64,000 nucleotides of DNA from Chloroflexota bacterium (GTDB lineage: Bacteria; Chloroflexota; UBA4733), in the NCBI GenBank assembly GCA_023381555.1, contig JAMCRV010000091.1, positions 9,556-73,555 of the forward strand. The letters run 5' to 3'. Shown piece after piece: positions 46,371 to 63,884 of the stretch. The notes beneath the pieces are model-generated. The model was not told where the DNA came from. It saw only the letters and a program-made list of their open reading frames with translations, and made no database searches. The position numbers and the translations under genes were made by a program. Numbering within the stretch: the stretch's first letter is position 1; every line of letters begins with the position of its first letter.

Positions 46371-46375
46371 ACGCA

Positions 46376-47251: not shown

Positions 47252-47262
47252 GGACGGAGGGC

Positions 47263-48039
47263 TCAGTCGCCTCGAAACTCGCGCGCAGCTGTCACCACAG
47301 CTTGGGCCGCGCCGGTCATCAGCGCAGCATCACTGCCAATCGCAATGAGCCGGAACCCCTGCTCCCAGCGCTGCCGGGCTGTAGAGGCTGTACCGGTGAG
47401 GATACCTGCCACTTTCTCATGCCGCTGAGCAACAGTCACGATGTATTGCAGCGCGGCCTCATAGGTCGGATAGGTGGGCTCGAGCAGGGGAGGCAGGCCG
47501 AGCGACGCGCATAAGTCGTTTGGCCCGACGAAGAGGCAGTCGAAGCCGGGCAAGGCGGCGATCTCCTCGAGTCGAGAAAGGGTATCGGTATGCTCGACTT
47601 GCAGCGCCACCAGCACTTCGTGATTGGCTTCGGCAAGATACTCCGCTCGAGGGACACCAAAACTCAACGGCGGGCGTAGGCCCCCAACACTCCTCACCCC
47701 CTGTGGCGGATAACGGCAGGATGCGATGGCACGGCGAGCCTCGTCAGGAGTATTCACCATCGGAATGACGATGCCATGGACACCAGCGTCAAGCACGCGC
47801 TTGATGAGGTTGACGTCGTTCCCCATCACCCGTGCGAGTGGCGCTACGGGCGTTCCCTGCATTGCCTGAAGCATCTGAATCAGCGTCTCAGTATCGGTAG
47901 GCGAGTGTTCGGTATCGACGACGAGGAAGTCGAACCCAGTGTGAGCGAGCAGTTCCGTGGCGATGGGACTCGCAAGATTGAGCCACGATCCGATGACGCC
48001 ACGCCTGGTTCGCAATCGAGAAAGCAACTGGTTCTGCAC
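47263..48039 (-). CDS. HpcH/HpaI-family 2-keto-3-deoxy-acid aldolase.
   Basis: The family pattern is conserved throughout (FDFLVVDTEHSP...GVHGIVIPMVNTPDEARR...YPPQGVRSVGG...). Confidence 0.8.
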   Translation of the reverse strand: MQNQLLSRLRTRRGVIGSWLNLASPIATELLAHTGFDFLVVDTEHSPTDTETLIQMLQAMQGTPVAPLARVMGNDVNLIKRVLDAGVHGIVIPMVNTPDEARRAIASCRYPPQGVRSVGGLRPPLSFGVPRAEYLAEANHEVLVALQVEHTDTLSRLEEIAALPGFDCLFVGPNDLCASLGLPPLLEPTYPTYEAALQYIVTVAQRHEKVAGILTGTASTARQRWEQGFRLIAIGSDAALMTGAAQAVVTAAREFRGD

Positions 48040-48449
48040 GTTTTAGCCCTCTTTCTCAGAAAGCACCGCCGGCGGGTGCCCAATCGTTCCCGCTCACGAC
48101 TGCGACGAAGGAGACTGATCCCGCGGACCTGGCCGTCGTCGCCCCAAGCCCTGCGCGCGCCGGTGGACCGCGAGCACATACTGCTGCATCTCGAACATCA
48201 CTCGCGCTGACCGCACCTCAGGATGTTCGGGACCGAATCCCCAGCTCTGGAGATGAGCAATACGCCGCTCTGCAGATTCCACCACAACCTGCAGCACGCG
48301 ATCGAGGTCACTCTCGGGAACAGGCTTGCTTGCGCGCATTGAACCTCACTGACTCGACTTCACTTCTGGCGCGAGTCGACAGAGTGACCGAGACCGCCGT
48401 TACCTTACCATAGATAGACGTCACGAAGACAGGAAGGAAGAGCGCCAAG

Positions 48450-49556
48450 GTGACGCTGCCATCCACCCCGTATCAACGGTTTGCCTACCCGGTGCTTCGC
48501 AGCCTTGATGCTGAAGCAGCGCATCACCATGCGCTCACTGCCCTCCAGACTCTGCAACGCAACTCGCTCGCCCTTGCTATACTGCGACAGCTCTATACAG
48601 TTCGCCACCCTCGCCTCGAGCGGACGCTGTTTGGCGTTCGCTTTGCCAACCCTGTAGGCGTGGCTGCCGGCTTCGACAAGAATGGAGTCGCCGTCGAGGC
48701 GCTTGCAGCACTCGGCTTCGGCCACATCGAAGTGGGCACGGTCACTCCCCGCCCACAGCGCGGCAATGAGCGTCCACGGCTAGTCCGTCTCATACGTGAC
48801 GAGGCCCTCATCAATCGTCTTGGCTTTCCGAATGAGGGTATGCACGCCATCATTCCGCACTTGCCCCCCCGCGGCACGCGCACCTTTGTGCTCGGCATCA
48901 ACATCGGCCCCAACAAGACCAGCGTCACGGCAGGCCGCGCAATCGACGACTACTTGGCGGCGCTCGACTACTGCGCTCCAGTGGCCGACTACTTCGCCAT
49001 CAACATCTCTTCGCCGAACACTCCAGGGCTGCGCAGCTTGCAACAGGCGCAGAGCCTCGACGATCTCCTGACCTCGATTTTCCGGCACACATCCAATGAA
49101 CGTATTTCCACACCAATCGCGGTGAAGCTTGGACCTGACCTCACTCGTGACGACCTGTGCGAGCTCGTGCGAGTGCTTATGGCCCATCCAGTCGCCGCCG
49201 TCATCGCGACAAACACCACGTCTTCCCGTCCAGCATCGCTACGGGATCCTCTAGCCACGGAGAGCGGCGGCTTGAGCGGGCGGCCCCTCCGTGACCTGGC
49301 CACTGCGGTGATTCGGACCATCAGCGACGCCAGCGCCGGAAAGCTCCCGGTCATCGGCGTCGGGGGGGTTTTCTCTGCACGTGATGCACACGAGAAGCTG
49401 GAAGCCGGGGCTACGCTCGTCCAGCTCTACACTGGGTTCGTCTACATCGGTCCATCCACAGCACGACGCATCAATGAAGGTCTGCTCTCGATGAAACGCA
49501 TCCGCCAGCGTGACACCAAAGCGGTCGCACGTAGCCCTTTGCCCCAGGACGGGTGA
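48450..49556 (+). CDS. pyrD: Dihydroorotate dehydrogenase (quinone), class 2.
   Basis: A class-2 N-terminal extension is present, along with GVAAGFDKNG, GFGHIEVGTVTP and NRLGFPNEG. Confidence 0.9.
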   Translation: MTLPSTPYQRFAYPVLRSLDAEAAHHHALTALQTLQRNSLALAILRQLYTVRHPRLERTLFGVRFANPVGVAAGFDKNGVAVEALAALGFGHIEVGTVTPRPQRGNERPRLVRLIRDEALINRLGFPNEGMHAIIPHLPPRGTRTFVLGINIGPNKTSVTAGRAIDDYLAALDYCAPVADYFAINISSPNTPGLRSLQQAQSLDDLLTSIFRHTSNERISTPIAVKLGPDLTRDDLCELVRVLMAHPVAAVIATNTTSSRPASLRDPLATESGGLSGRPLRDLATAVIRTISDASAGKLPVIGVGGVFSARDAHEKLEAGATLVQLYTGFVYIGPSTARRINEGLLSMKRIRQRDTKAVARSPLPQDG

Positions 49557-49760
49557 TCAGTACAGCCCCTTCGCTCAACATCAACATCACCGGACCAACT
49601 ACTGGCAGCAACGTCACACTCGACGATATCGCCACGCACGTCGTAAAGGGGAGAAAGTGGTGTTTCGAGAGCCCGCACGCCGGTATCCCGGCACAGTGAT
49701 CGAACAATCGCGCGAGCAGGAGGCGGTTTGAGCACGTGTCTCACTAAGATAGCAGTGGGC

Positions 49761-50507
49761 TCAGTACGTGGCCCGTCCACCGCTGATGTCAAAACACTGA
49801 CCGGTGCTGAAGCTGACTTCATCGGAAGCAAGCCAGCAGATGAGCGCCGCCACTTCGGTCGCCTTGCCCGTGCGTCCCATCGGGATGCGCTCGACCATGT
49901 AATCCACCTGCTGTGGTGTCAGCTGCTCGAGGATGGCAGTTTCGATCACTGCTGGGCTTACAGCATTCACCAAGATGCCATCTCTAGCCACCTCTTTGGC
50001 AAGTGCCTTCGTCAGCCCGATGACCCCGGCCTTGGCGGTCGAATAGGGAATCATATTGGGATTGCCTTCTTTGCCAGCAATCGAGGCAACATTAACGATC
50101 CGGCCATAGCGACGAGCCTTCATCCCAGGGATCGCAGCCCGACAGCAATAGAACACGCTCTGCAGGTCTACTGCCATCATCGTCTCCCAGTCCTCATCGG
50201 TTACACGTTCGATGGGGGCAGCACGGCCTGCGATGCCAGCGTTGTTCACGAGAATGTCCACCTTCCCGTGTTGACGCTCCGTTCCTCCAATGAGCGCCTC
50301 GACGTCGCTCTGCACCGTCACGTCAGTCACCATCGACACCACAGCCAGTCCAGCAGCTCTCAGCGCAGTCACCACGCTGGCCAGAGCGGTAGCATCGCGA
50401 TCTGCGAACACGACGAGTGCCCCTTCCCGTGCGAGCCGCTCCGCCGCCGCCGCTCCGATGCCTCGCGCTGCTCCTGTGACAACCGCGACCTTACCCTCCA
50501 GCAGCAT
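49761..50507 (-). CDS. Short-chain dehydrogenase/reductase (FabG-like).
   Basis: Classical SDR motifs are present: TGAARGIGAA, NNAG and YSTAKAG (Y-x3-K). The true start is MLLEGKVAVVTG; the 130-codon Cys/Arg-rich N-terminal extension in the ORF track was rejected. Confidence 0.85.
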   Translation of the reverse strand: MLLEGKVAVVTGAARGIGAAAAERLAREGALVVFADRDATALASVVTALRAAGLAVVSMVTDVTVQSDVEALIGGTERQHGKVDILVNNAGIAGRAAPIERVTDEDWETMMAVDLQSVFYCCRAAIPGMKARRYGRIVNVASIAGKEGNPNMIPYSTAKAGVIGLTKALAKEVARDGILVNAVSPAVIETAILEQLTPQQVDYMVERIPMGRTGKATEVAALICWLASDEVSFSTGQCFDISGGRATY

Positions 50508-50585
50508 TATGAACGCCCCCCTATATATATCCTCGCAAATACGGTAATCTTCGCACTTCTGCGCGAATGTGTCACAGGTACAGGT

Positions 50586-50627
50586 AAAACGCAAAGTGCG
50601 GGAGCGTACCAGTCCATCGCTCCCGCA
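50586..50627 (-). terminator. Putative intrinsic terminator downstream of the SSF symporter gene.
   Basis: TGCGGGAGCG-(11 nt)-CGCTCCCGCA is a perfect 10-bp inverted repeat. On the minus-strand RNA it is followed by ACUUUGCGUUUU. Confidence 0.5.
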
Positions 50628-50647
50628 CCTGTAATGAGAACTACGCG

Positions 50648-52177
50648 CTATGCAGCGCTCGCAGCGGCCTCGAATTCTATCTCGACACCACGGCCGCGGG
50701 CCACACCGAGCGCATCGAAGATAATGGTAAACACGACCGCAACTACAATGTTGAGCGCCAGGGCAAGCACGGCAGCGTAAGCACTGTAAGTAAACCCACC
50801 AAGGTGGAGCGCATACACCGACCCCGCAAACTTGTTGGCAACAGCCATGGCGATGCCCGCGACGATCCCGGCAGCCCAGCCGAGCAGCAGTGCCCACCGG
50901 TGGAACCAGCGCGTGTAGAGCGAAAAGACGACCGCGGGGAACGTCTGCGAGATGAGGATACCGCCCAGGAGCTGAAAGTTGATGGCATATTGCTGTGGCA
51001 AGAAGATCACGAAAATGAGCGCACCGAACTTCACGACGAAGGAAGTGATCTTGGCTGCACGCGCTTCCTCGCCCGTCGAGCAGTTCGGCCTGAAGTACGT
51101 CTTATAGATGTTGCGCGTAAACAGGTTTGCCGCCGCAATCGACATGACCGCGGAGGGAACGAGAGCGCCAATGACGATGGCCGCGAAGGTCACACCGACA
51201 AACCACGACGGGAACATCGCAACGAATAGGGCCGGAACGGCAAAGTTCGGTGTCTTTGGCGTGACGTGGGCAGCGAGCGCAAAGTACCCCAACAATGCCA
51301 TGAAGGCGAGCAACAGCGAGTACAGACCGAGCATCGCTGAGTTACGCCGGATCACTCCGCCACTCTTGGAGCTGAACACTGCGGTGATCGCGTGCGGGTA
51401 CATGTACAGAGCAAGCGCAGAGCCCAGTGCAAGAGTACCGTAAGCGCTGAAGGCGCCTGGCGGGAGAATGAGTGGGGATGGCGGCTTGTGCGCCTTGAGC
51501 GCAAGATCGGCCGCCTGGAAGATGTGTCCATAGCCACCGAGCTTGATAGGGATGTAGATCGCAGCCACGATACAGGTGATGTAGATGAGGCAATCCTTCA
51601 CGATTGCTGTGAGCGCCGGTGCCCGCAAGCCGCTTGAGTAGGTGTAGAGAGCAAGCACCAGGAAAGCGACGATGAGTGGGAGATCACCGGCCAGTCCTAA
51701 TCCAGTGAAACCCAGAGATGCGATGACCACCTGCATACCGACGAGCTGAAGAGCGATGTAAGGCATGGTGGCCACGATTCCGGTAACAGCAATGGCCAGC
51801 GCGAGTAAGCCGCTATCCGTGCGGTGATGAATCCAATCTGCTGCGGTGATGTAACCGTGCTTCTTCGCGATCACCCATAGGCGCGGCATGATAAAGAACA
51901 CTAACGGCCAGACGACGACGGTATAGGGAACTGCAAAGAAACCAACTGCGCCAGCCCCGTAGAGCGTTCCCGGCACTGCCACAAACGTGTACGCGGTAAA
52001 GAGGTCGCCACCGACGAGAAACCACGACACGATCGTCCCGAACTGTCTGTTCGCAAGACCCCATTCAGTAATGTGACTCAAGTCGCCGCGCCGCCACCGC
52101 GCCGCTGCGAACCCCACATAGGTGACAACCACAAACAACGCTAGAAAGACAATGGTTGCTACCCAGTCGATATGCAT
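50648..52177 (-). CDS. Sodium:solute symporter family (SSF) transporter.
   Basis: 509 aa with ~13 transmembrane helices and an SSF N-terminal region (WGLANRQFGTIVSWFLVGGDLFTAYTFVAVPG). Confidence 0.85.
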   Translation of the reverse strand: MHIDWVATIVFLALFVVVTYVGFAAARWRRGDLSHITEWGLANRQFGTIVSWFLVGGDLFTAYTFVAVPGTLYGAGAVGFFAVPYTVVVWPLVFFIMPRLWVIAKKHGYITAADWIHHRTDSGLLALAIAVTGIVATMPYIALQLVGMQVVIASLGFTGLGLAGDLPLIVAFLVLALYTYSSGLRAPALTAIVKDCLIYITCIVAAIYIPIKLGGYGHIFQAADLALKAHKPPSPLILPPGAFSAYGTLALGSALALYMYPHAITAVFSSKSGGVIRRNSAMLGLYSLLLAFMALLGYFALAAHVTPKTPNFAVPALFVAMFPSWFVGVTFAAIVIGALVPSAVMSIAAANLFTRNIYKTYFRPNCSTGEEARAAKITSFVVKFGALIFVIFLPQQYAINFQLLGGILISQTFPAVVFSLYTRWFHRWALLLGWAAGIVAGIAMAVANKFAGSVYALHLGGFTYSAYAAVLALALNIVVAVVFTIIFDALGVARGRGVEIEFEAAASAA

Positions 52178-52241
52178 CGCATGAGCCTCTCTTCAGCTTC
52201 ACGCTTGTTCTCCACGTCAACGGACCTCGGGCGCTGAGTCG

Positions 52242-52448
52242 CTACCGAGTGATGAAATACACCGTGGTGCATACGATTCCACCGAGAATGACCCAGAGAA
52301 TCTGCCACCAGTAGTAGAACGGAAAGCCGAAAAGCTCAGGAGTCTGCGAAGCATAAATCTGCGGGAAGAGCGTAAAGATGAAAGGAATGATGAGGAGAAT
52401 CTGCCAGCCCTTATGACGGCGGGCCCCTCCCTCAGCAGGATCGTCCAC
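52242..52448 (-). CDS. Small two-helix membrane protein, DUF3311/DUF485-like partner of the SSF symporter.
   Basis: 68 aa from a GTG start at 52448, with a GAGAGGAAGG ribosome-binding site ~9 nt upstream. It has two hydrophobic helices and a PFYYWWQ motif. It sits immediately upstream of the symporter, which is a conserved arrangement for this family. Confidence 0.4.
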   Translation of the reverse strand: MDDPAEGGARRHKGWQILLIIPFIFTLFPQIYASQTPELFGFPFYYWWQILWVILGGIVCTTVYFITR

Positions 52449-52791
52449 GAGCGCCTTCCTCTCTGCGCACTTCTGCGACACGCTCTGCAACTGTCCGGAT
52501 ACAGACGGAATGGAAGTACGGGAACCTCGGCCACTCCGAGACGGTGCAACTATAGCAAGCTCGCCACGAAGGGACAAGAATCCATCGAGATTCCTAGTCA
52601 AACTGGGAAGTGGCGGAGAGATCACGTCGTGCCCCAATCGGCTCCACGTGGCCTATCGCAACTGTTCGGAGCGCGCTGGTAGGTAGTAAGAGGCTCCGCC
52701 ACCAGACGTCTGGCCGGGATGCTGACTCGTCCACTGTCCCAAGCCGGCACGCGCTGCAGCACACCCTGGCTTGGGACGCACTACCCGCAGA

Positions 52792-53745
52792 CTAGAGTGT
52801 CAGACGATCTATCTCCGCAAGCTCTTCTGGGCTGAATTCGAGCTTGTCTAGGGCACTGACGTTCTCCTCGATCTGCTCCACCTTGGAAGCGCCAATCAGG
52901 GCACTCGTCACTGTAGGGAGCCGCAGAATCCAGGCAAGCGCCATCTGGGCGAGTGTCTGTCCTCGCCGGCCGGCAAGGCTGTTGAGGGCCCTTAGCTGTT
53001 CGAGACGCTCGGGCGTGAGGCGCCGCCTAGTCTGCTCTTCACCCCACCACAGGGCGGCTCGGGAATCGGCCGGGATCTCCCCTGAAAGGTATTTTCCCGT
53101 CAGCAGGCCGCTCGCGAGCGGGACAAAGGCAATGACGCCCGCTCCTGCGCGCTCGGTCTGCGGCAGCAAGTCGCGCTCGATGCCGCGATTGAGCAGATTG
53201 TACGCAGGCTGATGTATCGTGATCGGAGCCCAGTCGTGGCGCTCGCCCACCCTCACTGCATCGGCAAAATGAGCCCCATTGAAACTGCTCACACCTCCAT
53301 AGAGCACTTTTCCTTGGCGAATGAGCATGTCAATCGCACCCAAGCTCTCCTCAAGTGGTGTGTGCGAGTCAGGTCGGTGGAGATAGAAGATGTCGAAGTA
53401 GTCCAGGCCCATCCGCTTCAAGCTCTGCTCGCAGCTCGCCACGATGTACTTCTTCGAGAGCCATTCCCCATACGGACCGGGCCACATGCGATAGCCCGCC
53501 TTCGAGCTGATGATCAGCTCGTCGCGCGGCAGCTCGCCGCGGATGATCTCACCACACACAAGCTCCGAGTTGCCTGGAGGGCGCCCATAGTTGTTGGCAA
53601 AGTCAAAGTGCGTGATGCCGAGATCGAAGGCCCGGCGCAAGCACGCCCGCGCAATCTCCGGACCCCGATATCCGCCGAACGTCTCCCATCCCCCAAGGGA
53701 GATGACGGGGAGCAGCAAGCCACTGCGTCCACACCGACGGTAGAC
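52792..53745 (-). CDS. Aldo/keto reductase (YghZ/Tas-like).
   Basis: An AKR pattern is present (LGGWETFG...GITHFDFANNYG). The start was chosen at MVYRRCGRSGLLLPVISLG; the ORF track starts 33 codons upstream. Confidence 0.85.
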   Translation of the reverse strand, partial: VYRRCGRSGLLLPVISLGGWETFGGYRGPEIARACLRRAFDLGITHFDFANNYGRPPGNSELVCGEIIRGELPRDELIISSKAGYRMWPGPYGEWLSKKYIVASCEQSLKRMGLDYFDIFYLHRPDSHTPLEESLGAIDMLIRQGKVLYGGVSSFNGAHFADAVRVGERHDWAPITIHQPAYNLLNRGIERDLLPQTERAGAGVIAFVPLASGLLTGKYLSGEIPADSRAALWWGEEQTRRRLTPERLEQLRALNSLAGRRGQTLAQMALAWILRLPTVTSALIGASKVEQIEENVSALDKLEFSPEELAEIDRLTL

Positions 53746-54048
53746 CATATGGTCGTACCGGTCGGCAGCGAAAACGTCCTCGACTCCACGCGCGATTCGC
53801 GTCGCGCGCAGCTGAAGATCTCCCTCTTGACCCATTCTCTGCACCTTTTCTGCTGCACCCTAGAACTGCGGACGGCATTACCGCACCGGCAAGAGCTTAG
53901 AGGATAACCTTCCTGACACGCAACGCCAGCGCCGGGGTTGGCACTGATGTTGCAACAGGTCATTCATGGAGAGTAAGCTAACGATGCAGGGCCTTTCAAT
54001 ATGGGTGGCTCGTTTCCCCGATATCGGCAGCCGAAAGGGGTAAAAACA

Positions 54049-54810
54049 ATGGCTACAGCGCAACTGCTCCAAACCGTCGTGCGCGGTTTGAATGAGGTTC
54101 AAAAGCGCACCGACGAGTCGTCCCGTCAGACGGCTCGACTGCGTGCTGACTTCCTGGAGCGTATTGAAAAGGCCACCGAGCAGCTTCAAGATAGCGCTGT
54201 CTATCTCCGGCAGCTGGGCAGACTCGTCGAGGAGGAGATCAGTCCTCTGACGGCGACCGCTCGTGATATGATGTCTGCGATACCTCAGTTCACCGAGGAG
54301 GGAGGTCGCTACATCAAAAAACAGGCCAGCGCAACGCTACACTCTCAGTCGCTCTCTCTAATCAACCGGCTGTCACGCGGGCTGCCGCGCCTTCAGGTCA
54401 CCCTGTCACGGCCTTTCCTGCAGCGCGCTCGTCCCTCACCCTGGCAACTCGCAGCAAGACGCCGGTTCTCCTTCCTCTCACGAGCAAGCATGTTCAGCTT
54501 CGGCAGTCTGCTGAGCTTTAGCAGCTTCTGCAGTGTCCTAAGTGTCAATAGCGCGGGCAGCGTCTTGAGCATCGGGAGCGCTGGGAGCATCCTCAGCATC
54601 GGAAGTGTCGGGAGTATCCTCAGTATCCGAAGTACTCAGAGCATCCTCAGTATTGGGGGGAAACGCACGGTACTGCATCGCCGCAACCGGGCAGGATCCA
54701 CACTAGGCACTGCAGCAGACCAACCGCAATCAGCAACTACCGCTGACACCGACGGTGACCAGGCGGCCAAGGGTAACAACGACTCGCCGGTCACAGACAC
54801 AGCCAGCTAG
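54049..54810 (+). CDS. Hypothetical protein with an N-terminal predicted coiled coil and a C-terminal Ser/Ile/Gly-rich nonapeptide tandem repeat.
   Basis: The ATG at 54049 has a GAAAGGGG ribosome-binding site. The protein contains SVLSVNSA-GSVLSIGSA-GSILSIGSV-GSILSIRST-QSILSIGG, encoded by an imperfect 27-bp tandem repeat (~54527-54665). Confidence 0.4.
   Translation: MATAQLLQTVVRGLNEVQKRTDESSRQTARLRADFLERIEKATEQLQDSAVYLRQLGRLVEEEISPLTATARDMMSAIPQFTEEGGRYIKKQASATLHSQSLSLINRLSRGLPRLQVTLSRPFLQRARPSPWQLAARRRFSFLSRASMFSFGSLLSFSSFCSVLSVNSAGSVLSIGSAGSILSIGSVGSILSIRSTQSILSIGGKRTVLHRRNRAGSTLGTAADQPQSATTADTDGDQAAKGNNDSPVTDTAS
54527..54665 (+). repeat. Imperfect 27-bp tandem repeat, ~5 copies, in-frame within the hypothetical CDS.
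   Basis: The copies are GGCAGCGTCTTGAGCATCGGGAGCGCT, GGGAGCATCCTCAGCATCGGAAGTGTC, GGGAGTATCCTCAGTATCCGAAGTACT, CAGAGCATCCTCAGTATTGGGGGG ... Confidence 0.65.
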
Positions 54811-56414
54811 ACGGCTGTCGTGCGTGGCCAGGATAGCTCAAACCCCTGTGCGGCACAGAGCCGCTGGAAGTCCTGCAGATACTCCTGTGACTCCCGCACA
54901 GCATGCGGACTGTGCCTGGCGACGAGGCAGTGCGCCGCCAACAGCCCTGCTGCTTCACCGATGTTCCACTCGACCGGGTGCAGGCGGTAGCATCCAGTGG
55001 TGATGTGGGTCACGCCGAGGTTCTTGCACGCTGGTAGAAGATTACGGACACGCACCGGAAGCAGCGCACCGAGTGGAATGCGGAAGGGTAGAGAGTCGAT
55101 GTCGACGTAGTTGACGTGCGTCGATGAGGGGTGGAGATCGATGCGATAGCAGCCCACTCCAACACTGTCAACAAATGGTTCACCTTCTCCCGGTTGGCCC
55201 CGCCCGATTCCCCGCGCCCTGGCTCCCACGTGCTGCTCGGTTACCGTGAAGACCGCGCGGATGCGCCTGCTCTCCCGAATGTAGGGATACTTTGCCAGAC
55301 CATCGTCCGTATCGACGAGATCTGGTCTCAGGTAGAGCCCAGGGTAACCGGCGCCGCCGTCAGGACGAGGAGCCTCGGTCTGGAGCCAGTACATCAGGCT
55401 GAGGGAAAGCTGTCGTGCCTCCTCGAGGTAGCGCTGTCGCTCCTCTTCCGGCTTGTCGATAATGTTCCCCTCAAAGTAGTCGTTCTGAGGCCAGTTGACG
55501 AGCGTTACCTCGTGCGGAACAACGTCCCCCACGTAGTGACCGCTGTGTACGATTCTGCGGTAGAGCCAGAGTGACTGGCGCGTCTCTTCCCCTGGGAAGA
55601 GCACTCGCTGGCGTGGTCTGAGTGTGATGGGATCAGGATGCGTCCAGCTGAGCAGCGGGCCCGTCCACGCTGGTGTGAGATCAGGAACGTAGTTGCGCCA
55701 GCACGCATACTGTGGCGGCCGGTCGATGACGTGGTTAGCGCCCGGCGCCGGATCATACGCCATTGGGAAGCACCAGGTGATGCCCTGCACATTATCCGGT
55801 TGCGGCGGACCTTCGACCGCGTGGGGCTCGCCGGTCTCGGCCTGACTTTCGGCCCCTGAGACATACTCCACAGCAGCAAGCGGCAGGAGATCTCCGAGCT
55901 CGGTCGCATCGAGGACATAGCGGGCTGCGACCACGATCTCCTCGTTCGTGACACTGTTGCGAACCGTCACCGACCGGATGGCATCCCCATCGACCTCTGC
56001 GGCTACCGGCACAGTGTTGAGCATCACGCGGAGGAGCCCCGACATTCGAGCGAAGGACAGCATCTCCTCTAATACTGCGTGACCAATGCGGAAATCGTGA
56101 CACAGGCGCGAGACACCACCCTGGCCGGGGTTTAGGTAAGGGTCACGTAGCGCGTCGGCGATGAGTGGGTGATGATGGCGGTAGTAGGCCCGCACTCCGG
56201 TGCGATAAGCGCGATAGCGCCGGGTGCTTCCAAACTGCTCGATCCAGCGGTGCTCATCTGGTGGAACCGCCTGGGATGTCAGCTGCCCGCCGATCCACGA
56301 CGTCTCCTCAGTCAGCACCACACGCTGGCCCAAGCTGGTCGCTGCCATTGCGGCGGCGACGCCACCAGTGCCTCCTCCCACGACCACAACATCGGTCTGA
56401 ACTTCCTTGACCAC
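54807..56414 (-). CDS. FAD-dependent oxidoreductase (PF12831-like).
   Basis: A GxGxxG dinucleotide fold is present (DVVVVGGGTGGVAAAMAA) and there is a PF12831-like C-terminus (NIGEAAGLLAAHCL). Confidence 0.75.
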   Translation of the reverse strand: MVKEVQTDVVVVGGGTGGVAAAMAATSLGQRVVLTEETSWIGGQLTSQAVPPDEHRWIEQFGSTRRYRAYRTGVRAYYRHHHPLIADALRDPYLNPGQGGVSRLCHDFRIGHAVLEEMLSFARMSGLLRVMLNTVPVAAEVDGDAIRSVTVRNSVTNEEIVVAARYVLDATELGDLLPLAAVEYVSGAESQAETGEPHAVEGPPQPDNVQGITWCFPMAYDPAPGANHVIDRPPQYACWRNYVPDLTPAWTGPLLSWTHPDPITLRPRQRVLFPGEETRQSLWLYRRIVHSGHYVGDVVPHEVTLVNWPQNDYFEGNIIDKPEEERQRYLEEARQLSLSLMYWLQTEAPRPDGGAGYPGLYLRPDLVDTDDGLAKYPYIRESRRIRAVFTVTEQHVGARARGIGRGQPGEGEPFVDSVGVGCYRIDLHPSSTHVNYVDIDSLPFRIPLGALLPVRVRNLLPACKNLGVTHITTGCYRLHPVEWNIGEAAGLLAAHCLVARHSPHAVRESQEYLQDFQRLCAAQGFELSWPRTTAV

Positions 56415-57445: not shown

Positions 57446-57917
57446 GCGCGCGCCAGCTTGCACAGCTACACGAGTGTGCGCCGGCGCAGTGCTTGCACAC
57501 CAATGGGCAGCGTCACGGTTACAGTAATGGTGAGTACAGCTAGCTTCCGGCTGCCAAGATACGTAGTCGCGGATCGCTCACCGGTGACGGTGCAGTGGCT
57601 CTGTACGTAGCGTGCAGCGGTGCGCCTTAGCTGACGCGGCCTTACCCGATGGATCTCACGGTGCCCTGAGCTTTCCGGGTTCACGCTGCTCTGACGAGTA
57701 CGAGAAGGAAGGGCCGGGAGAGCAGGAAGCAAAGGAGAATCCGCATGTCGCCACATCTCATCATTAGAGCGTTTCGCCCCCTCACTCTTTCAATCGGTCA
57801 TCGTGAGGCTGTGTTGGCACGAACAGTGCTCTCTGTCGAACAATGGGGTAGCGCATGGCTGTCTGGACGATACCGCTCACTCAGTCGTACGTTAATACGG
57901 GGCAGGGAGAGCAATAA

Positions 57918-58355
57918 ATGAGATGGTGTAGCGCACCTGCTGATCGCGTCCTCGGTGATGTCGACCTGCCTAGCCCTAGGCCCTGTCCAAGGCGCACGCG
58001 GGAACGCCCAATCAGGACGGGCAAGCCGCTCATTGGTGAGGAAGGCGAGGTGGTGCTCAGGGCTGTGACGTACTCGTACCATGCGCTCACACGGAGCTGC
58101 CAGAGAGCGCTCACTCCCGACCAAATTGCCTACGTGCTCATCTACGGCACTCCGGTGTTTCGCGCAGGAGCGCTCTTCTACGTGCTGCGCCGGCGTGACA
58201 TCACGCCCGGAGATCTGCGTTCCGATGAAGTTGCCAAGCTCGAAGGTGCCGTCGTCTTAGTCAGCGAAGGTGTCATTACGACGGTGTATCGCAACCGTCG
58301 CGCGCTGCGGAGCATCCGCAAGAAGCAGAAGTATTTCCGAGGCTCAGCGGCGTAA
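57918..58355 (+). CDS. Hypothetical protein, DUF4258-like.
   Basis: The C-terminal ~90 aa (VVLRAVTYSYHALTRS...TPDQIAYVL...VVLVSEGVITTVYRNR) resemble DUF4258 small proteins. The start is uncertain. It is convergent with the helicase-nuclease gene, with a 7-bp gap. Confidence 0.3.
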   Translation: MRWCSAPADRVLGDVDLPSPRPCPRRTRERPIRTGKPLIGEEGEVVLRAVTYSYHALTRSCQRALTPDQIAYVLIYGTPVFRAGALFYVLRRRDITPGDLRSDEVAKLEGAVVLVSEGVITTVYRNRRALRSIRKKQKYFRGSAA

Positions 58356-58362
58356 CCCTGCG

Positions 58363-61300
58363 CTACTGTGTACTGGCCTCATTCGCCGTAACAGCACTCT
58401 CCACTGCGCCTGACGCTCCGGGACGCTTGGGACAGATGAAGAGCTGTGCGCACTCCGAGCAGTGCTGCCCTGGGCTTGGCAGGAACCTCTTCGAGGCAAT
58501 CATCTGTGCTGTGGAATCGAAGGTGTTGAGTCGTGCTTGTTCATGGCGCTTCTGCGGTGGCCACACTTCAATCAATATGTTGTCGAGTGGGTAGAAAAGC
58601 TCTACTCGAGCTGTCTCATCCGCCGCATACTGACTGAGAGCGAGGCGGTAGAGCGACAACCGGTCTTCACGTGGATGCTCGTCCGACCTCCTGCCGAACC
58701 GGATGCGTCGCAACACAAGGCCGCTGCCGGTCCGTTTGCTCTCGTCGAAGTCTACGCGGATGACCGAGTGCGGGAGGTCAACCCACAGGGAGTGGCACCA
58801 TACCTGGAACGCTCCGTCACGTTGCTCGCGATCGTAGAGGCTCCGCAGCATCGTCTCCGCCCGTTGACGGTAGTACTGCTCATAGGTAGACCCAACAGGC
58901 CCGCCAGCCGCCCACTTGTCCTCAAATTCCGAAAGCGTGGCCTTCCAGGAAGGTAGCACACCCGCGGCTATGCTGTTCCGTAGCCATTCTCCCGTCTGGG
59001 ACACAACGCTCGTGTACCGGCGCTGCGGGTTCTGCTGAGAACCACTGTCCAGCAACAATACGCGTTGGTAGTAGAACTGGAGCGGGCAGCGCAGATAGTG
59101 CTCGATGGCATAGGCAGAGTGCCGTGGTTTGTCGCTCTTGATGGCCGGTAGCGAAGGCTCTACGATGGCCGCGCCGCTCATCCAGCTATCATTAGCCCTC
59201 TCAGCCGTGCCAAGTCGTTGAGGATGGACGCCAAGCCGTTCGCAATACGGAAGCACGAGGTCGACAAAGGGCGAAGGCTTCTCCTCACGTTTGAGATAGC
59301 GCTTCGACCAGCTCAGCACGAGCACGTCGCGCGCCCGGCTTATCGCTACGAAGAAGAGAAAGGCTTCATCGGAGGTGTCAGCGCTGGGTATCGCCGAGAG
59401 CAAGCCAGGCGGTGGTGGGCAGGGTTCTCCCTTACTTGACGCTGGAAATCGGCCCTTCGTCAGGTGAGGCACCGCGACTACGGGGAATTCGAGTCCCTTA
59501 CTCGCGTGCACCGTGAGGATGCGGATCGCGTCCACTCTTTCCAAGCTGGGAGGAAGCCCGATGCGCCCTTCGCCCATCTGGAAGAGGCGCCGTGCGTAGT
59601 CGACGAACGTCAAGCGACCGAATCCTGGCACACCCGCTGTCTTGCGCACCTGGAAGCTGCGCGCGAGCAGCACGAGCTCTCCGAGCGTCACAAGCTCAAG
59701 CTGCGCTTCAATGCCACCATCACGCAACAGTGTCTGGAGATGTGCCGGAGCAGAGAATAGGTACCGGGCCAATCCTTTGGCTGGGTCGCCATCGCGAAAG
59801 CACGTGGCCAGAAGCTCTCCAAGACGCTGGAACTGGATGGCGTCATCTGGTGCAATCCCTGCGATCTCGCCTGCTCTCCTAAGCGCGTCAGGAAAAGGGA
59901 TTCCGCAGAGACGCGCGTTGGTCACGAGGGTATGAGCCGCCTCCGGATGCAGCGAAGGATCTACAAGGCGCGCGAGACCGAAGAGATCACCGCCGTCACC
60001 TTCCTCCGTCAAGGACAGGAGCGACAGGAGCTCTTTCACTTCTGGGCGGGTGAAGAGATTTCCCAGATAGGCTACGGGCACGCCACACTGCTTCAACGCC
60101 TGGGCGATAGCTTCCGCCTGGGAGTTCGTCCGGCACAGCACGGCCATATCGCGGAAAGGGCGCCCCGCCGTGTGCTCATCGTGCAGCGCTGCTGCCAGGG
60201 CAGCATGCTCACTCGCGCCATCGCTACTCTCAAACAGCCGCACCGCAGGCCTCATTGCCCTTGCCAGGTCGCCGCGCTCACTCCCCCACGGCGCTATCGG
60301 ATCGTCCGGGAGAATCTGATTGGCAACGTCTGAGAAGAGACCGACCAGTGGTGCAACGGACCGGTAGTTGCGGGCGAGGTGAATACGGCTTGCTTCCCGG
60401 AAGTCTTGCTCGAACTGACCGACGTTGGCCGGAGAGGCCCCACGGAACTGGTAGATCGACTGGCGCAAGTCTCCTACCGCCCACAATCCACGGCCTTCGC
60501 TCGCCAGTAGCTTGAGCAGGTAGGCACTCGCTCGGTTGACATCCTGATACTCATCCACAAGCACGTGCTGGTACTGCGCCTGAAGCTCATTCCGGACATC
60601 CTCGTACTCTTCGAGCAGATGAACCACCTTCACCAGCAAGTCACCGTAGTCCACCATAGTCAAGCTGTTGAGAAGAGCGTCGTAGTAAGCATAGAAATCC
60701 GCCACCTCCATAGCCTTGGCTGCCGCCAGCTGTTCCGCGTCCTTGTGCGCCGCATCCCACTGCCGCTCCGCAAGCCGGCGATAGTCCCGAGGCGTCTTGA
60801 GCTCATCCTTGGCACGCGACACCGCTCTCAGAAGGTCCGGTAGATAGAGCCCTGGCTCTCCCGGATGCGCATAGTGCTGCAGCGGCAACGAGGCGATTCG
60901 CTCGTCAAGCATGAGGTAGGCATCGACCGTGTCGATGATGCGCACATCCGGCCGCAGACCCGCTCGCAGGCTGTAGCGCCGTAGGAGCTCGAGGGAAAAG
61001 GAATGAAACGTCTCTATAGTGAGACCCGTAGCCGCATCGCCGGCGGCGGAAGCAAGGCGATCGCGCAGCTCCTGTGCCGCCTTGTTCGAGAACGTCAGCA
61101 CGAGAATACTGCGAGCTGGAACGTGCTGCTCACGGAGCAAATACTGCACCCTACCACTCAAGGCACGCGTCTTTCCCGTGCCCGGACCTGCTGCGACAAG
61201 GAGGGCCCGGCCCTTCCAACGAGCGGCTTGATCTTGCGAGAGGTCTAGAGTGACGGGTTGAGCTTCCACGGCGGCAGCTACCGGCTCATTACCGGGAGCC

Positions 61301-61863
61301 TGTTCAACAGGAGGCTCAGCCGTCAACACCCCAGCAATGAGCTGATTGATGACGGCGCTTTCGGGCAGCTCCAATCGCTCTACGAGTTGAGCCAGGGTTG
61401 CGCCTTCCCGAATGAGCGCTCGGAGCAGCAACTGCGGGGCCAGAAGCTCAGCAGCGAAGACGCTCGCCTCCATCTCAGTGCGCTGTCGTGGATTGTAGGT
61501 GGCGAGCTTACTCGTCGAGGATAGCGAAGACTCGTCTGGCAGCGCTTCGACATCACCATCACCACAGTTAGTGGCTGCACCGTGCTGGTGACCGAGCACG
61601 AAGTGACCGATTTCGTGAGCGACGGCAAAGTTCTGCGCCGCCAGGCTGAGCGACCTATCGACGGAGATCCATTCGTCAACCAGTCTAGCCCGCGCACCGT
61701 CGAGCGCCGGGTCGTCTGGACCGAGGGGCAATAAGCCGAGGTCCGTCTGGGCAAGCGCGGCAGCGACCACGAGCGAGCCCCAGGTACAGCCATCGTCGTC
61801 AGAGCAGCAAATGTTTGTGCGGAAGGTCTGGGCCCGCAGACGCACCTGTGCCCAGGTATCCAC
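58363..61863 (-). CDS. Three-domain fusion: M78-family (ImmA/IrrE-like) zinc metallopeptidase, UvrD/Rep-type SF1 helicase, and Cas4/AddB-like PD-(D/E)XK Fe-S nuclease.
   Basis: 1166 aa. The N-terminus has HEXXH (AVAHEIGHFVLGH) plus a downstream Glu (EASVFAAELLAP), which is the ImmA/IrrE pattern. The helicase carries motif I AAGPGTGKT, motif II LVDEYQD, motif III DLRQSIYQFRGA, ARNYRS, VLCRTN and motif V/VI TVHASKGLEFPVV. The C-terminus has YAIEHYLRCPLQFYYQR (the Cas4-like N-terminal Cys), VDFDE, and a terminal C-x2-C-x5-C (HCSECAQLFIC). The GTG start is 3 nt after the upstream gene's stop. Confidence 0.8.
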   Translation of the reverse strand: MDTWAQVRLRAQTFRTNICCSDDDGCTWGSLVVAAALAQTDLGLLPLGPDDPALDGARARLVDEWISVDRSLSLAAQNFAVAHEIGHFVLGHQHGAATNCGDGDVEALPDESSLSSTSKLATYNPRQRTEMEASVFAAELLAPQLLLRALIREGATLAQLVERLELPESAVINQLIAGVLTAEPPVEQAPGNEPVAAAVEAQPVTLDLSQDQAARWKGRALLVAAGPGTGKTRALSGRVQYLLREQHVPARSILVLTFSNKAAQELRDRLASAAGDAATGLTIETFHSFSLELLRRYSLRAGLRPDVRIIDTVDAYLMLDERIASLPLQHYAHPGEPGLYLPDLLRAVSRAKDELKTPRDYRRLAERQWDAAHKDAEQLAAAKAMEVADFYAYYDALLNSLTMVDYGDLLVKVVHLLEEYEDVRNELQAQYQHVLVDEYQDVNRASAYLLKLLASEGRGLWAVGDLRQSIYQFRGASPANVGQFEQDFREASRIHLARNYRSVAPLVGLFSDVANQILPDDPIAPWGSERGDLARAMRPAVRLFESSDGASEHAALAAALHDEHTAGRPFRDMAVLCRTNSQAEAIAQALKQCGVPVAYLGNLFTRPEVKELLSLLSLTEEGDGGDLFGLARLVDPSLHPEAAHTLVTNARLCGIPFPDALRRAGEIAGIAPDDAIQFQRLGELLATCFRDGDPAKGLARYLFSAPAHLQTLLRDGGIEAQLELVTLGELVLLARSFQVRKTAGVPGFGRLTFVDYARRLFQMGEGRIGLPPSLERVDAIRILTVHASKGLEFPVVAVPHLTKGRFPASSKGEPCPPPPGLLSAIPSADTSDEAFLFFVAISRARDVLVLSWSKRYLKREEKPSPFVDLVLPYCERLGVHPQRLGTAERANDSWMSGAAIVEPSLPAIKSDKPRHSAYAIEHYLRCPLQFYYQRVLLLDSGSQQNPQRRYTSVVSQTGEWLRNSIAAGVLPSWKATLSEFEDKWAAGGPVGSTYEQYYRQRAETMLRSLYDREQRDGAFQVWCHSLWVDLPHSVIRVDFDESKRTGSGLVLRRIRFGRRSDEHPREDRLSLYRLALSQYAADETARVELFYPLDNILIEVWPPQKRHEQARLNTFDSTAQMIASKRFLPSPGQHCSECAQLFICPKRPGASGAVESAVTANEASTQ

Positions 61864-61866
61864 TCG

Positions 61867-62484
61867 TCACTCCGCCGCGGCAGTATTGATAGCGGACCAG
61901 CGTTCCTCCGCCAGCCAGACTCTCATCTCCGGAGTTGTCTTCGCCCGTTCGAGCGCAGCGTCGAAGGACTCCTGCAGGGGCTCAATGGGGACGGTGCGGG
62001 CGTAGTGCGCCCCTTGCGGCTGCGGCTGTTGGAGATAAGCGATGACCTGGGCGACGCTCAAGTCAAGAACGTCCGCCAAGCGACTAATGAGCTTGACCGG
62101 CAATGAGCCGAGACTGAGCCCGCGCATATCTATCTTGCCAAAAACCTCGAGGGGTATCCCTATCGCACCGGCTATGGCACTCTTGCACTTTCCGAGCTCT
62201 CGCCCGCGCGCAGAAAGCGTCTTGGGCATCCTCCGGAGGGCCTGTGCCATGGTTTCTGTCAGGATGCGCTCGAGTTCAGGATACTGATCGTTCTCCAGAA
62301 CATCCTCGTCGGCATCGACCGTCGCTTCGTAGAGCTCGGCAAATTCTAGGAGCCCACTTGCATGTTGCGGATACTGCTCGAGAAGGTCGAAGAGGGTGGG
62401 ACCTGTGCGCCGCTCTCGCCCCTCGACGTAGAGCATGAGAACGCTGTCCAACTCAGCTTCGGAACGCTCGGGGGTAGTCATCAT
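61867..62484 (-). CDS. XRE-family helix-turn-helix protein, the putative repressor partner of the peptidase fusion.
   Basis: The start was chosen at MMTTPE; its ATG overlaps the sigma-factor TGA (ATGA). A central HTH is present (LSARGRELGKCKSAIAGAIGIPLEVFGKI...LSVAQVIAYL). It lies directly upstream of the M78 peptidase domain, mirroring ImmR-ImmA/DdrO-IrrE gene pairs. Confidence 0.6.
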   Translation of the reverse strand: MMTTPERSEAELDSVLMLYVEGRERRTGPTLFDLLEQYPQHASGLLEFAELYEATVDADEDVLENDQYPELERILTETMAQALRRMPKTLSARGRELGKCKSAIAGAIGIPLEVFGKIDMRGLSLGSLPVKLISRLADVLDLSVAQVIAYLQQPQPQGAHYARTVPIEPLQESFDAALERAKTTPEMRVWLAEERWSAINTAAAE

Positions 62485-63338
62485 CGGGAGTACTCCTCTT
62501 GTGAGCCAAGTAACTGCCTGAGCCACCTCAGCGCCCTGTTCCGGATGTTTCTCACCGTGCGATCGGTCACGCCTAGCACACTGCATACCGTCCTCTCAGA
62601 TGGATCCTGCGAGGTGACCTTGAGCTTCTCCTCGAACAGCAAGATGAGGACCTGTTGCTCTTGATACGGCAGCCTCAGCAAGGCATCTCGTAGCTTTGCG
62701 CTCTCCACACTGGCAAGAACCTGAGCGTCAGGCGTGGGAGCCGGATCAACGGGCTCCCACTCCCTGTCGTCGCCCTGGCTGTTTGTGCTGTTGAACCTCT
62801 CTTCGTGCTGCTGGCGGTTGTCGCGCGCAGAACCGGCCCCGCGCGCCGCGGAGATCACGATTCGCCTGAGTGCTTCCTGAAAGTTTGCTTCCCAAAACTC
62901 CCGTTGGGGATCCAGTATATGTTGCCAGAGCGTGACGCTCACTTTTTGAAGGAAGTCGCTGCTCTCCGGAGAGTGACGCCACCTATCCACAGCTCTCGCG
63001 TACCGGAGAATGAGGGGTTTGGTCCGCAGCACGAGCAGCTCCGCTGCCTGGTCCCTTTCCTCTTGATTGCCGTGCCGCACGAAGTAGCGCACTGCCATCA
63101 CGAGCACCTCAGACGCGACGTAGCGTTGACTCCCTTGGTTTGCCTCGCGGAGGTAGTCCCAGAACGCACGGGTATGCACTGGCGGCAGCTTGCGAAGCTG
63201 CTCCGCAACGGTCTCGTTGAGCGTGTACTGGCGTGTCGCACGCACATCCAGCGTGTGAAGACTTCCTTGGCGTCCCGCTGTTGCCATCCCCGAACTCCCA
63301 CCCAGGACCAGTAGCTTCTCCTGACGGGAGTGTGGCAT
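62481..63338 (-). CDS. Sigma-70-family RNA polymerase sigma factor (ECF-like/divergent), first gene of the three-gene operon.
   Basis: The C-terminal region 4 HTH is clear (LPYQEQQVLILLFEEKLKVTSQDPSERTVCSVLGVTDRTVRNIRNRALRWLRQ). A region-2-like helical segment lies upstream (YVASEVLVMAVRYFVRHG). Confidence 0.65.
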   Translation of the reverse strand: MPHSRQEKLLVLGGSSGMATAGRQGSLHTLDVRATRQYTLNETVAEQLRKLPPVHTRAFWDYLREANQGSQRYVASEVLVMAVRYFVRHGNQEERDQAAELLVLRTKPLILRYARAVDRWRHSPESSDFLQKVSVTLWQHILDPQREFWEANFQEALRRIVISAARGAGSARDNRQQHEERFNSTNSQGDDREWEPVDPAPTPDAQVLASVESAKLRDALLRLPYQEQQVLILLFEEKLKVTSQDPSERTVCSVLGVTDRTVRNIRNRALRWLRQLLGSQEEYSR

Positions 63339-63452
63339 GAATACAGCACTTGAGTGAAATTGACCGCCGGCGCATGCCAGAGAACCACCGTGTTGCCCCT
63401 CTCACCATGCCTACTCGCCGCAGCCAGCTCCAGGCGGAAGTACCGCTGGCAG

Positions 63453-63495
63453 TTGTCAGCCGCAGAATCGTGACAATATAGTGTCTTGAAGACAC
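63453..63495 (+). promoter_or_regulatory. Putative sigma-70 promoter (TTGTCA, 18 nt spacer, TATAGT) with an overlapping palindrome GTGTCTT-G-AAGACAC.
   Basis: A -35/-10 pair with 18-nt spacing is present. A perfect 7-bp-arm inverted repeat lies immediately downstream at 63481-63495, in the divergent region between DUF488 and the sigma operon. Confidence 0.35.
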
Positions 63496-63515
63496 AGAGA
63501 GTAGGAGGTGGGCAC

Positions 63516-63884
63516 ATGGTGAAGACAAAGCGCGTCTACGACCTCCCAGTAAAGGACGATGGCTATCGCGTGCTCATCGAGAGACTCTGGCCCCGCGGCC
63601 TGTCGAAGGACCGCGCCCAGATTGATGAGTGGTGCAAGGATGTCGCACCATCGACAGCGCTACGCACTTGGTATGCACACGACCCCACCAAGTGGGAAGA
63701 GTTCAGCCACCGCTACCGTGCCGAGCTCGCCCAGGCACTGGCACAACGTGCCCTGACTACTCTCGTCCAGAGGGCCCGCCAAGAGCACGTCACGCTCCTC
63801 TTTTCAGCACGCAATCCTGAGCTGACCAGCGCACGTATCCTTGCTGAAGAAATCGAGCAGCGGCTTGCGTTGCCCTCAACATAG
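63516..63884 (+). CDS. DUF488-family protein.
   Basis: The conserved DUF488 core is present (YDLPVKDDGYRVLIERLWPRGLSKDRAQIDEWCKDVAPSTALRTWYAHDPTKWEEF). The start was chosen at MVKTKRVYD, with a GGAGGTGGG ribosome-binding site. Confidence 0.7.
   Translation: MVKTKRVYDLPVKDDGYRVLIERLWPRGLSKDRAQIDEWCKDVAPSTALRTWYAHDPTKWEEFSHRYRAELAQALAQRALTTLVQRARQEHVTLLFSARNPELTSARILAEEIEQRLALPST

Follow-up and report, generated by a model that had tools for sequence, protein, structure and literature searches.

Pairs of genes encoding a helix-turn-helix (HTH) protein and an M78 peptidase are a recurrent two-gene arrangement (Xre-COG2856). In the IrrE(PprI)/DdrO pair of Deinococcus and the ImmA/ImmR pair of ICEBs1, the M78 protease cleaves an Xre-type repressor upon DNA damage, and IrrE/PprI is reported to sense single-stranded DNA (ssDNA) directly (PMC10904395). 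In the CapH/CapP pair, Lau et al. (bioRxiv 10.1101/2022.04.27.489752) report that ssDNA activates the peptidase CapP and that CapH, an HTH repressor, is its substrate for cleavage. The active site of Thauera CapP is formed by H96, E97, H100 and E129, and a “cysteine switch,” C113, lies 13 residues past the second His on an inserted loop, where it is a zinc ligand and occludes the substrate site. [quoted passage not shown] Here we describe a locus that is related to these regulators in a stretch of 64,000 nucleotides from a Chloroflexota bacterium (assembly GCA_023381555.1, contig JAMCRV010000091.1, positions 9,556 to 73,555 of the forward strand), which we refer to as the window and number from its first letter. 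Its central gene, c0 (58363-61863, minus strand), encodes a 1166-aa fusion of an M78 peptidase, a UvrD-type superfamily 1A (SF1A) motor and a degenerate Fe-S nuclease-like domain. We propose, with a probability that we put at about 60%, that c0 is the sensor-protease of a three-gene switch, together with an extracytoplasmic-function (ECF)-like sigma factor (c1) and a partner protein (c2), and that this switch is a variant, coupled to a helicase, of the CapH/CapP, IrrE/DdrO and ImmA/ImmR regulators. The domain identities, the status of the active sites, the conservation of the cassette, its adjacency to other operons and the promoter motif reported below were computed here.

To assess whether c0 is a real protein, we examined its open reading frame (ORF), its homologues and a structural model. 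The ORF is uninterrupted, starts with GTG and has GGAG 6 nt upstream of that start. Pfam, with all domain calls on c0 above their gathering thresholds, returned the three-domain architecture that the original prediction had proposed from the sequence, with Peptidase_M78, UvrD-helicase, UvrD_C and PDDEXK_1 in a single ORF. The strings quoted in support of that proposal were all found as well (HEIGH at residues 83-87, EASVFAAELL at 132-141, GPGTGKT at 226-232, DEYQD at 437-441, YLRCPLQ at 923-929, HCSECAQLFIC at 1134-1144 and CCSDDDGC at 19-26). An AlphaFold2 (AF2) model built on 25 family members (mean predicted local distance difference test [pLDDT] 83.6, predicted template modelling score 0.83) consists of three domains with two short disordered linkers at residues 187-202 and 888-909. 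Over 100 homologues with the same Pfam architecture came up in a homology search, from many independent assemblies; they are about 1130 aa long, with identities of 33-43%. The residue counts given below are alignment columns over 118 full-length family members. As the full architecture is common to these 118 proteins from independent assemblies, a frameshift or misassembly joining separate peptidase and helicase genes is ruled out.

The fusion had been presented as an unusual combination. It is no one-off: it represents a family of several hundred clusters at 50% identity, whose members are found in a cassette of fixed gene composition. Searching exhaustively with HMMER and the N-terminal 200 residues of c0, we obtained 378 clusters at 50% identity. 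Among the 141 newly returned best matches, 73 were at least 1000 aa long and 39 were shorter but already contained a Walker A motif, which identifies the latter as truncated fusions. Because the matches to this N-terminal query are mostly full-length or truncated fusions, the M78 subtype of c0 is essentially specific to the fusion. The protein is not new as a sequence, being already public under generic names, and NCBI holds an entry identical to c0 ([quoted passage not shown]). The family is widespread and apparently undescribed. In our literature search, neither the M78-UvrD-dead-nuclease fusion nor a sigma-c2-c0 cassette was described, though absence from a search is no proof of being unpublished. 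The word “helicase” is absent from the Bil, Bub, CapH/CapP, CapK/CapS and Iyer 2006 papers, and the cassette has no entry in the supplements that we checked.

The N-terminal M78 peptidase domain (residues 1-185; 61309-61863, the minus strand, as for all c0 features below) was matched by Peptidase_M78 (PF06114) at residues 63-174 with 32.7 bits against a cutoff of 22. The HExxH motif (H83, E84 and H87; 61603-61617) and the downstream glutamate E130 (61474-61476) that together characterize M78 peptidases are found in 118/118 members, so the HEXXH...E site noted earlier is both present and intact. We searched a family profile of this domain against PDB and found that its nearest relatives are CapP (7t5t, E value 1.7 × 10−5) and, after it, IrrE (3dte). 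The segment of c0 that runs from HExxH to the cysteine, AHEIGHFVLGHQHGAATNCGDGD, aligns without gaps to AHELGHYILHRMQRESFQCSDAD of CapP, including a shared C-x-D-x-D pattern, with QCSDAD in c0 and NCGDGD in CapP at the switch itself. The cysteine in question, C100 (61564-61566), lies 13 residues past the second His, H87, as in CapP, and is kept in 112/118 members. The original prediction had passed over C100, which tells more than any other cysteine of c0, and singled out a cysteine-rich CCSDDDGC patch near the N-terminus. That patch is noise as far as family conservation can tell: C19 is found in 22/118, C20 in 0/118 and C26 in 1/118 members, and the patch falls within a variable loop between two N-terminal helices where model confidence is lower. 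We conclude from these alignments that the c0 peptidase is of the CapP type, with a predicted intact active site and the CapP cysteine switch. Autoinhibition of the peptidase had been raised as a possibility and is plausible, the cysteine-switch loop being its likely device; the loop bearing C100 (residues 90-124) has low confidence in the AF2 model, consistent with a mobile switch loop.

In sum, c0 and CapP have in common the M78 HExxH...E site, an internal cysteine switch at +13 and an adjacent gene for an HTH partner. They part in what follows the peptidase. CapP is a protein of about 290 aa with a central HTH and a C-terminal GAF domain, whereas c0 has neither and instead carries a UvrD motor of about 680 aa and a dead Fe-S nuclease domain of about 240 aa (residues 205-1147). 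IrrE/DdrO and ImmA/ImmR are without a helicase, an Fe-S domain or a sigma factor, and IrrE is also without the cysteine switch.

The motor is a UvrD/PcrA-like SF1A helicase core (residues about 205-885; 59209-61251) assigned by Pfam, PDB profile and Foldseek comparisons. UvrD-helicase (PF00580) matched residues 209-488 (E value 3 × 10−62) and UvrD_C (PF13361) followed (E value 1 × 10−31), the pair spanning about 209-854. The best correspondence was to PcrA in a profile search of PDB (E value 1.6 × 10−132), and Foldseek placed the model with PcrA/UvrD (E value 1 × 10−33). SF1 motifs I-VI are complete, as had been claimed: the Walker A lysine K231 (GPGTGKT, 61168-61188), the Walker B residues D437 and E438, Q440 and the motif VI arginine R843 are each present in 118/118 members. 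PADLOC matches to GajB and RTasHel were limited to the generic UvrD or helicase core, and the window holds no GajA neighbour and no reverse transcriptase (RT) partner; we therefore rejected membership of Gabija and of RTasHel.

The C-terminal domain (residues about 910-1147; 58423-59136) is a RecB/AdnA-like “iron-staple” domain according to PDDEXK_1, which matched residues 916-1145 (25.4 bits against a cutoff of 22), and to a profile search of PDB, in which its closest solved relative is the AdnA nuclease domain (E value 5 × 10−8). Four cysteines in a C...CxxCx5C arrangement are predicted 4Fe-4S ligands on the strength of their conservation: C926 (59086-59088), C1135 and C1138 are found in 118/118 members and C1144 in 115/118 (the last three at 58432-58461). 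The AdnA motif III, VVVDLKTG, contains D934 and K936, and D934A is the published nuclease-dead mutant, visible in PDB sequences. In our alignment this motif pairs with lvveRlRtG of the c0 family, so that R1053-I-R1055 (58699-58707) stands in place of D-x-K. At the position of AdnA D934 we counted R in 105/118 members and D or E in 0/118, and at that of K936 R in 91/118 and K in 9/118. The motif II aspartate, D1040, is kept (D in 115 and E in 3 of 118), and the Q of QxxxY is lost. The Cas4-like Fe-S nuclease of the original prediction thus stands as a fold with a 1+3 cysteine arrangement and falls as an enzyme, since motif III reads R-x-R. Judging from these residues, the domain has retained the fold and the iron staple and lost the PD-(D/E)xK active site, and it is very probably not an active nuclease of the Cas4/AddB type. 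The R-x-R-T-G replacement is itself conserved, which speaks against decay and for a binding function that has been retained, plausibly DNA binding. c0 would be a clear example of how a RecB/Cas4-fold Fe-S domain can be preserved for a role other than catalysis.

These two domains bear directly on the possibility that c0 is a repair helicase-nuclease for double-strand breaks of the AddA, AdnA or RecB kind, whose ImmA-like domain links repair with the derepression of a regulator encoded nearby; this is essentially how the gene was first read, the Cas4-like nuclease being taken as active. The shared layout is real: in AdnAB, AddAB and RecBCD, as in c0, a RecB-fold domain that bears a C...CxxCx5C iron staple comes after a UvrD-like SF1A motor. 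The four Fe-S cysteines are near-invariant as counted above, and NCBIfam gave sub-threshold matches to PcrA, UvrD and AddA. But c0 combines its parts in a single polypeptide with an added N-terminal protease, and its catalytic D-x-K is R-x-R in about 90% of the family. Its scores against the PcrA, UvrD and Rep models (277, 222 and 233 bits) are far under the NCBIfam equivalog cutoffs (911, 1144 and 951). No gene for an AddB, AdnB, RecC or RecD partner adjoins it in the window or in any related locus, and no cas genes were found in the flanks examined, unlike the CRISPR-cas association of Cas4 proper. Whereas the context of AdnAB, AddAB and RecBCD is repair, that of c0 is regulatory or defence-related, and its distribution is patchy and plasmid-borne rather than core-genome. 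We regard a role as a repair nuclease as improbable.

To determine how c0 is embedded, we next analyzed its operon, a context that the original prediction had missed. The genes lie in the order c1-c2-c0 on one strand, the c2 ATG overlaps the c1 stop codon (ATGA) and the c2 stop codon lies 3 nt ahead of the c0 GTG. c1 (62481-63338, minus strand) encodes an ECF-like member of the sigma-70 family, 285 aa long, in which the sigma2 and sigma4 regions are preceded by an N-terminal extension; it matched NCBIfam TIGR02937 with 57.7 bits against a cutoff of 42.9, and its family profile found SigL (6dv9_F) in PDB with an E value of 4.4 × 10−7 across sigma2 and sigma4. c2 (61867-62484, minus strand) is a 205-aa Xre-HTH-like partner protein, a description that draws on its homologues, an AF2 model and Foldseek. 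It has no Pfam match and hence no anti-sigma domain recognizable by Pfam, and as a single-sequence query it recovered only itself, while a profile search detected 163 homologues, all annotated as “hypothetical.” The AF2 model, made with database homologues (pLDDT 73.7), shows a confident N-terminal three-helix domain that carries a “YPQ” motif, a central HTH-like domain, a disordered loop with a conserved [FYH]-[KR]-[AS]-x3-P motif after the HTH, and C-terminal helices. A Foldseek search with this model returned nothing significant and weak local matches to HTH domains of the Xre/cI type, and the best matches of the central domain, NGO0477, SinR, C.BclI, lambda cI and DdrO, are all of that type. 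An additional domain at the N-terminus and the lack of a Pfam HTH match set c2 apart from CapH.

The relationship between c1 and c2 can be approached through their homologues. BLAST clustering of all ORFs in 18 genome loci, drawn from Acidobacteria, Alpha-, Beta- and Gammaproteobacteria, Chloroflexi and Verrucomicrobia, showed that 14 have homologues of c1 and c2 in the corresponding places, and the c1-c2-c0 arrangement was also found in plasmid records and in all six metagenome contexts with gene tables. In three loci (L005, L012 and L014) the usual c1/c2 is replaced by a distinct, divergent and co-varying pair of a sigma-like protein and a partner (clusters c25/c26), which is consistent with two proteins evolving as an interacting pair. 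In another locus, L006, the N-terminal domain of c2 has been exchanged for a zf-HC2 anti-sigma domain (E value 8 × 10−5) while the C-terminal half remains homologous (hhalign probability 99%), and the gene upstream of this orthologue retains a sigma4-like region. The strongest hint that c2 may carry a sigma-binding module at its N-terminus comes from this exchange of domains.

The pairing of an HTH-like gene with an M78 gene also allows a reading as a toxin-antitoxin-like module of the Xre-COG2856 type, in which the M78 protein would be toxic, the HTH protein neutralizing and the sigma factor an accessory. The depositors of 7t5t named the chain “CapP toxin,” which speaks for it. CapP was, however, shown to be a CapH-cleaving regulator and not a toxin (Lau et al., 10.1101/2022.04.27.489752), and a toxin would leave unexplained the strictly conserved helicase, the conserved sigma factor and a promoter motif that is shared with downstream operons. 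We consider this reading very improbable, the least credible of those weighed here.

Next, we characterized the distribution and genomic neighborhoods of the family. In a scan of one genome per species, full-length c0 relatives were found in Acidobacteria, Alpha-, Beta- and Gammaproteobacteria, Verrucomicrobia and Chloroflexi, the proteobacterial genera and families being Sphingomonas, Caulobacter, Nitrosomonas, Collimonas, Pseudomonas, Kluyvera and Methylococcaceae. With tblastn we found c0 on plasmids in Aminobacter, Rhizobium, Roseovarius and Acinetobacter. Nine loci have the cassette followed by co-directional BilA-D genes (PADLOC E values 1 × 10−45 to 1 × 10−164); in L084 about 475 nt separate the cassette from bilA, and in the other eight the spacer measures about 90-130 nt. 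Nine others have the cassette followed by genes for a Multi_ubiq protein, an E1-like DUF6791/JAB-ThiF protein and a DUF6527 protein, which is the gene set of the Bub (6E) operon of Ye, Gong and Corbett. Taken together, the cassette lies co-directionally upstream of bilA or of the Bub ubiquitin-like (Ubl) gene with a spacer of about 40-130 nt in 17/18 loci from different phyla; the hosts of these operons include Sphingomonas, Acinetobacter, Pseudomonas, Kluyvera, Caulobacter, Chloroflexi and others. On one metagenome contig (P0010), the cassette divergently adjoins a bacteriophage exclusion (BREX) system made up of BrxE, BrxA, BrxB, a large ATPase-sized gene and a PglX-like methylase; an ADP-ribosylglycohydrolase gene comes after the cassette on that contig. 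Two further kinds of gene recur near the cassette. One, in three alphaproteobacterial loci of the Bil type, encodes a HipA_C kinase domain; in L002 (12474-14321) and L004 (12846-14117) it comes directly downstream of bilD, whereas in L021 (10-1074) it is found upstream of the sigma gene at a distance of about 3.4 kb. An ARPP-1 (PF20208) gene accompanies the cassette in L086 (5540-6550, minus strand) and L084 (15477-16484, plus strand).

Cassette and CapH/CapP thus share a position beside anti-phage operons (Bil, Bub and BREX for the cassette, in relatives and not in the window), with a difference in layout: capH/capP is divergent from bilABCD in all but one case, and sigma-c2-c0 is co-directional with its putative target operon. 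The niche beside Bub and Bil operons is also occupied by CapW/BrxR (WYL-HTH) and CapK/CapS (GHKL kinase and STAS), which respond to DNA damage or ssDNA and belong to protein families unrelated to those of the cassette. For the output, a parallel is DdvS/DdvA of Myxococcus (Sci Adv 2024), in which an ECF sigma factor that is held by an anti-sigma partner is reported to drive a defence locus (a CBASS-CRISPR island); DdvA is there a transmembrane anti-sigma factor, and no M78 peptidase or helicase is reported to take part. In the published regulator table, several Sphingomonas 6E.2 Bub operons (Sphingomonas sp., sp. Ant H11 and sp. Y57) have no listed regulator and the word “helicase” does not occur. 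Both Sphingomonas loci that we examined, L009 and L013, carry the cassette, though they were not matched one to one with the entries of that table.

The short stretches that separate c0 from bilA or from the Bub Ubl gene carry a candidate promoter element with an ECF-type layout: TTTCCGGTT, a gap of 15-17 nt and CGATTA/G. At two or fewer mismatches, TTCCGG-N15-17-CGATT is found in 15/18 of these spacers (about 100 nt), the same spacers from which the consensus was derived. For each matching spacer, at most 4% of shuffled spacers match, and for most of them at most 0.5%. The motif is also visible by eye upstream of c1 in seven loci (L002, L004, L008, L014, L053, L081 and L084), five of which (L002, L004, L008, L053 and L084) also passed the motif scan there. 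A motif before the sigma operon and again before the downstream operon is the layout expected of an autoregulated sigma factor that drives an adjacent target. In three loci of the Bub (JAB-E1) type the motif falls on the plus strand within c1, towards its 3' end and some 200 nt ahead of c2 (L003 5075-5101, L007 4992-5018 and L018 4991-5017), which suggests an internal promoter for c2-c0. The best motif match of L086 (score 16.9, position 6615, minus strand) points at its ARPP-1 gene, which is divergent from c1 there and may be a regulated target. In the Acidobacteria locus L001, a tandem GATTTCG repeat with four TTTCGGA copies (9392-9427, plus strand) directly follows the c0 stop codon and resembles reiterated −35 elements.

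In the window, a TTCCGS-N16-CGAGT variant of the motif occurs exactly twice, at sites that flank the cassette, where 0.06 occurrences are expected; this type of variant is also found upstream of c1 in L085. The first site, TTCCGC-N16-CGAGT (63413-63439, minus strand), was found in the variant scan about 75 nt before the c1 ATG and is a candidate c1 promoter. It lies in the intergenic region that c1 shares with a divergent gene for a DUF488 family protein (PF22752/PF04343, E value 2 × 10−38; 63486-63884, plus strand). The second, TTCCGG-N16-CGAGT with an extended −35 element CTTTCCGGGTT (57673-57699, plus strand), follows closely on the 3' end of c0 and is oriented towards a small convergent ORF. 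It is the top match in the window for a position weight matrix (PWM) trained on other loci, with a score of 15.6 that about half of shuffled windows reach, and we assign it to the system tentatively. The convergent ORF (145 aa; 57918-58355, plus strand) has a weak likeness to DUF4258 (E value 0.058, below threshold), the likely real protein being the C-terminal portion of about 100 aa from 58047. As a possible sigma-dependent target it is tentative as well, and it is the only extra candidate in the window.

We envisage that the switch would operate as follows. The motor and the dead nuclease domain, which resemble the DNA-end-engaging parts of AdnAB and AddAB, would engage DNA ends or ssDNA that arise when a phage infects the cell or DNA is damaged. 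Translocation powered by ATP, or its ssDNA product, might then displace the cysteine-switch loop and render the peptidase active. The peptidase would cleave c2, probably in the conserved disordered loop after the HTH. c2 would normally keep c1 inactive, as an anti-sigma factor, a repressor or both, and c1, once freed, could direct RNA polymerase to TTCCGG-N16-CGAT/CGAGT promoters. The outcome would be positive feedback on the cassette and induction of an adjacent Bil, Bub or other operon. Under this scheme the output of the cassette would probably be sigma activation, as opposed to the simple derepression of CapH/CapP.

Several points weigh against this scheme. We infer DNA sensing by the motor, cleavage of c2 and the sigma/anti-sigma relation by analogy with the systems introduced above. 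The matches of c2 to HTH proteins are statistically weak (E value 0.025 by sequence, Foldseek E values of 0.45 or higher), and an anti-sigma domain was detectable in c2 only in the L006 orthologue. The derivation of the motif consensus from the spacers in which it was later counted and the ease with which shuffled windows equal the 57673 score both reduce what the promoter evidence can carry. No Bil, Bub or other recognized defence operon is present in the window, and the cassettes of L083, L085 and L086 likewise stand alone; a purely regulatory role would have no evident output in the window. Finally, an ATP-driven motor within a protein of 1166 aa is a heavy sensor and could itself be the effector.

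In an alternative reading, the three genes form a self-contained system of anti-phage defence or abortive infection, with c0 itself as the effector. Its helicase would strip, unwind or block the replication of invading DNA, the peptidase, sigma and HTH genes would control only the expression or activity of c0, and the adjacency to Bil, Bub and BREX would reflect clustering in defence islands. Such a system fits the solitary cassettes of the window and of L083, L085 and L086 (where no recognizable defence genes follow it), the patchy distribution suggestive of horizontal gene transfer, plasmids included, and ATPase motifs that are all strictly conserved. It also fits top PADLOC matches to the defence helicases GajB and RTasHel, but these matches are restricted to the generic UvrD core and come with no GajA or RT partner, and the nuclease centre is lost. 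In 18 loci of relatives, moreover, the cassette is co-directional with bilA or the Bub Ubl gene and set before it at a fixed distance, with a conserved sigma-type promoter in the spacer; this combination argues for functional coupling rather than chance clustering. We therefore hold an effector role for c0 to be unlikely, while giving it more weight than either repair or toxicity, and favor the sensor-protease switch.

To complete the picture of the window, we examined the genes around the cassette. It stands alone among metabolic and transport genes with no GC anomaly. The neighbors at 40549-56414 encode a sulfatase, a transaldolase, parts of an ATP-binding cassette (ABC) transporter, an HpcH aldolase and a dihydroorotate dehydrogenase, as well as a short-chain dehydrogenase/reductase (SDR), a Na:solute symporter, an aldo/keto reductase and a flavin adenine dinucleotide (FAD) oxidoreductase. 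Pfam searches of the neighbors from 40 to 57 kb found only such metabolic and transport genes and no defence island, and tblastn of BilA-D and the Bub proteins against the window gave no match. An ORF at 54001-54810 (plus strand) has a C-terminal half in which short, nearly identical repeats (…SVLSIGSAGSILSIGSVGSILSIRSTQSILSIGG…) follow one another. As this ORF runs into the end of the oppositely oriented FAD-oxidoreductase gene, it is a doubtful gene.

The meaningful context of c0 is regulatory. Relative to the CapH/CapP and IrrE/DdrO regulators, the cassette adds a proposed motor-based sensor and a probable sigma-factor output. More broadly, and as a tentative proposal to which we give somewhat less than even odds, it may represent an unrecognized class of DNA-sensing signalling systems, in which an ATP-driven SF1 motor and a nuclease-dead Fe-S end-binding domain license a metalloprotease in cis, one with a cysteine switch, against a partner that is an anti-sigma factor or repressor, and thereby switch on a dedicated sigma factor of the ECF-like type, and may be the native inducer of many Bil and Bub operons. 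If this is true, a motor protein would act as a sensor that gates proteolysis of the partner of a transcription factor, and the cassette would be a helicase-gated analogue of RecA/LexA. Ubiquitin-like conjugation by Bil and Bub systems is a current focus in anti-phage immunity, and no Bub operon was found to protect against phage in E. coli (Ye, Gong and Corbett). An inducer encoded by the cassette could explain this lack of protection by the Bub operons tested so far, and would offer a directly testable route to activate Bil and Bub systems.

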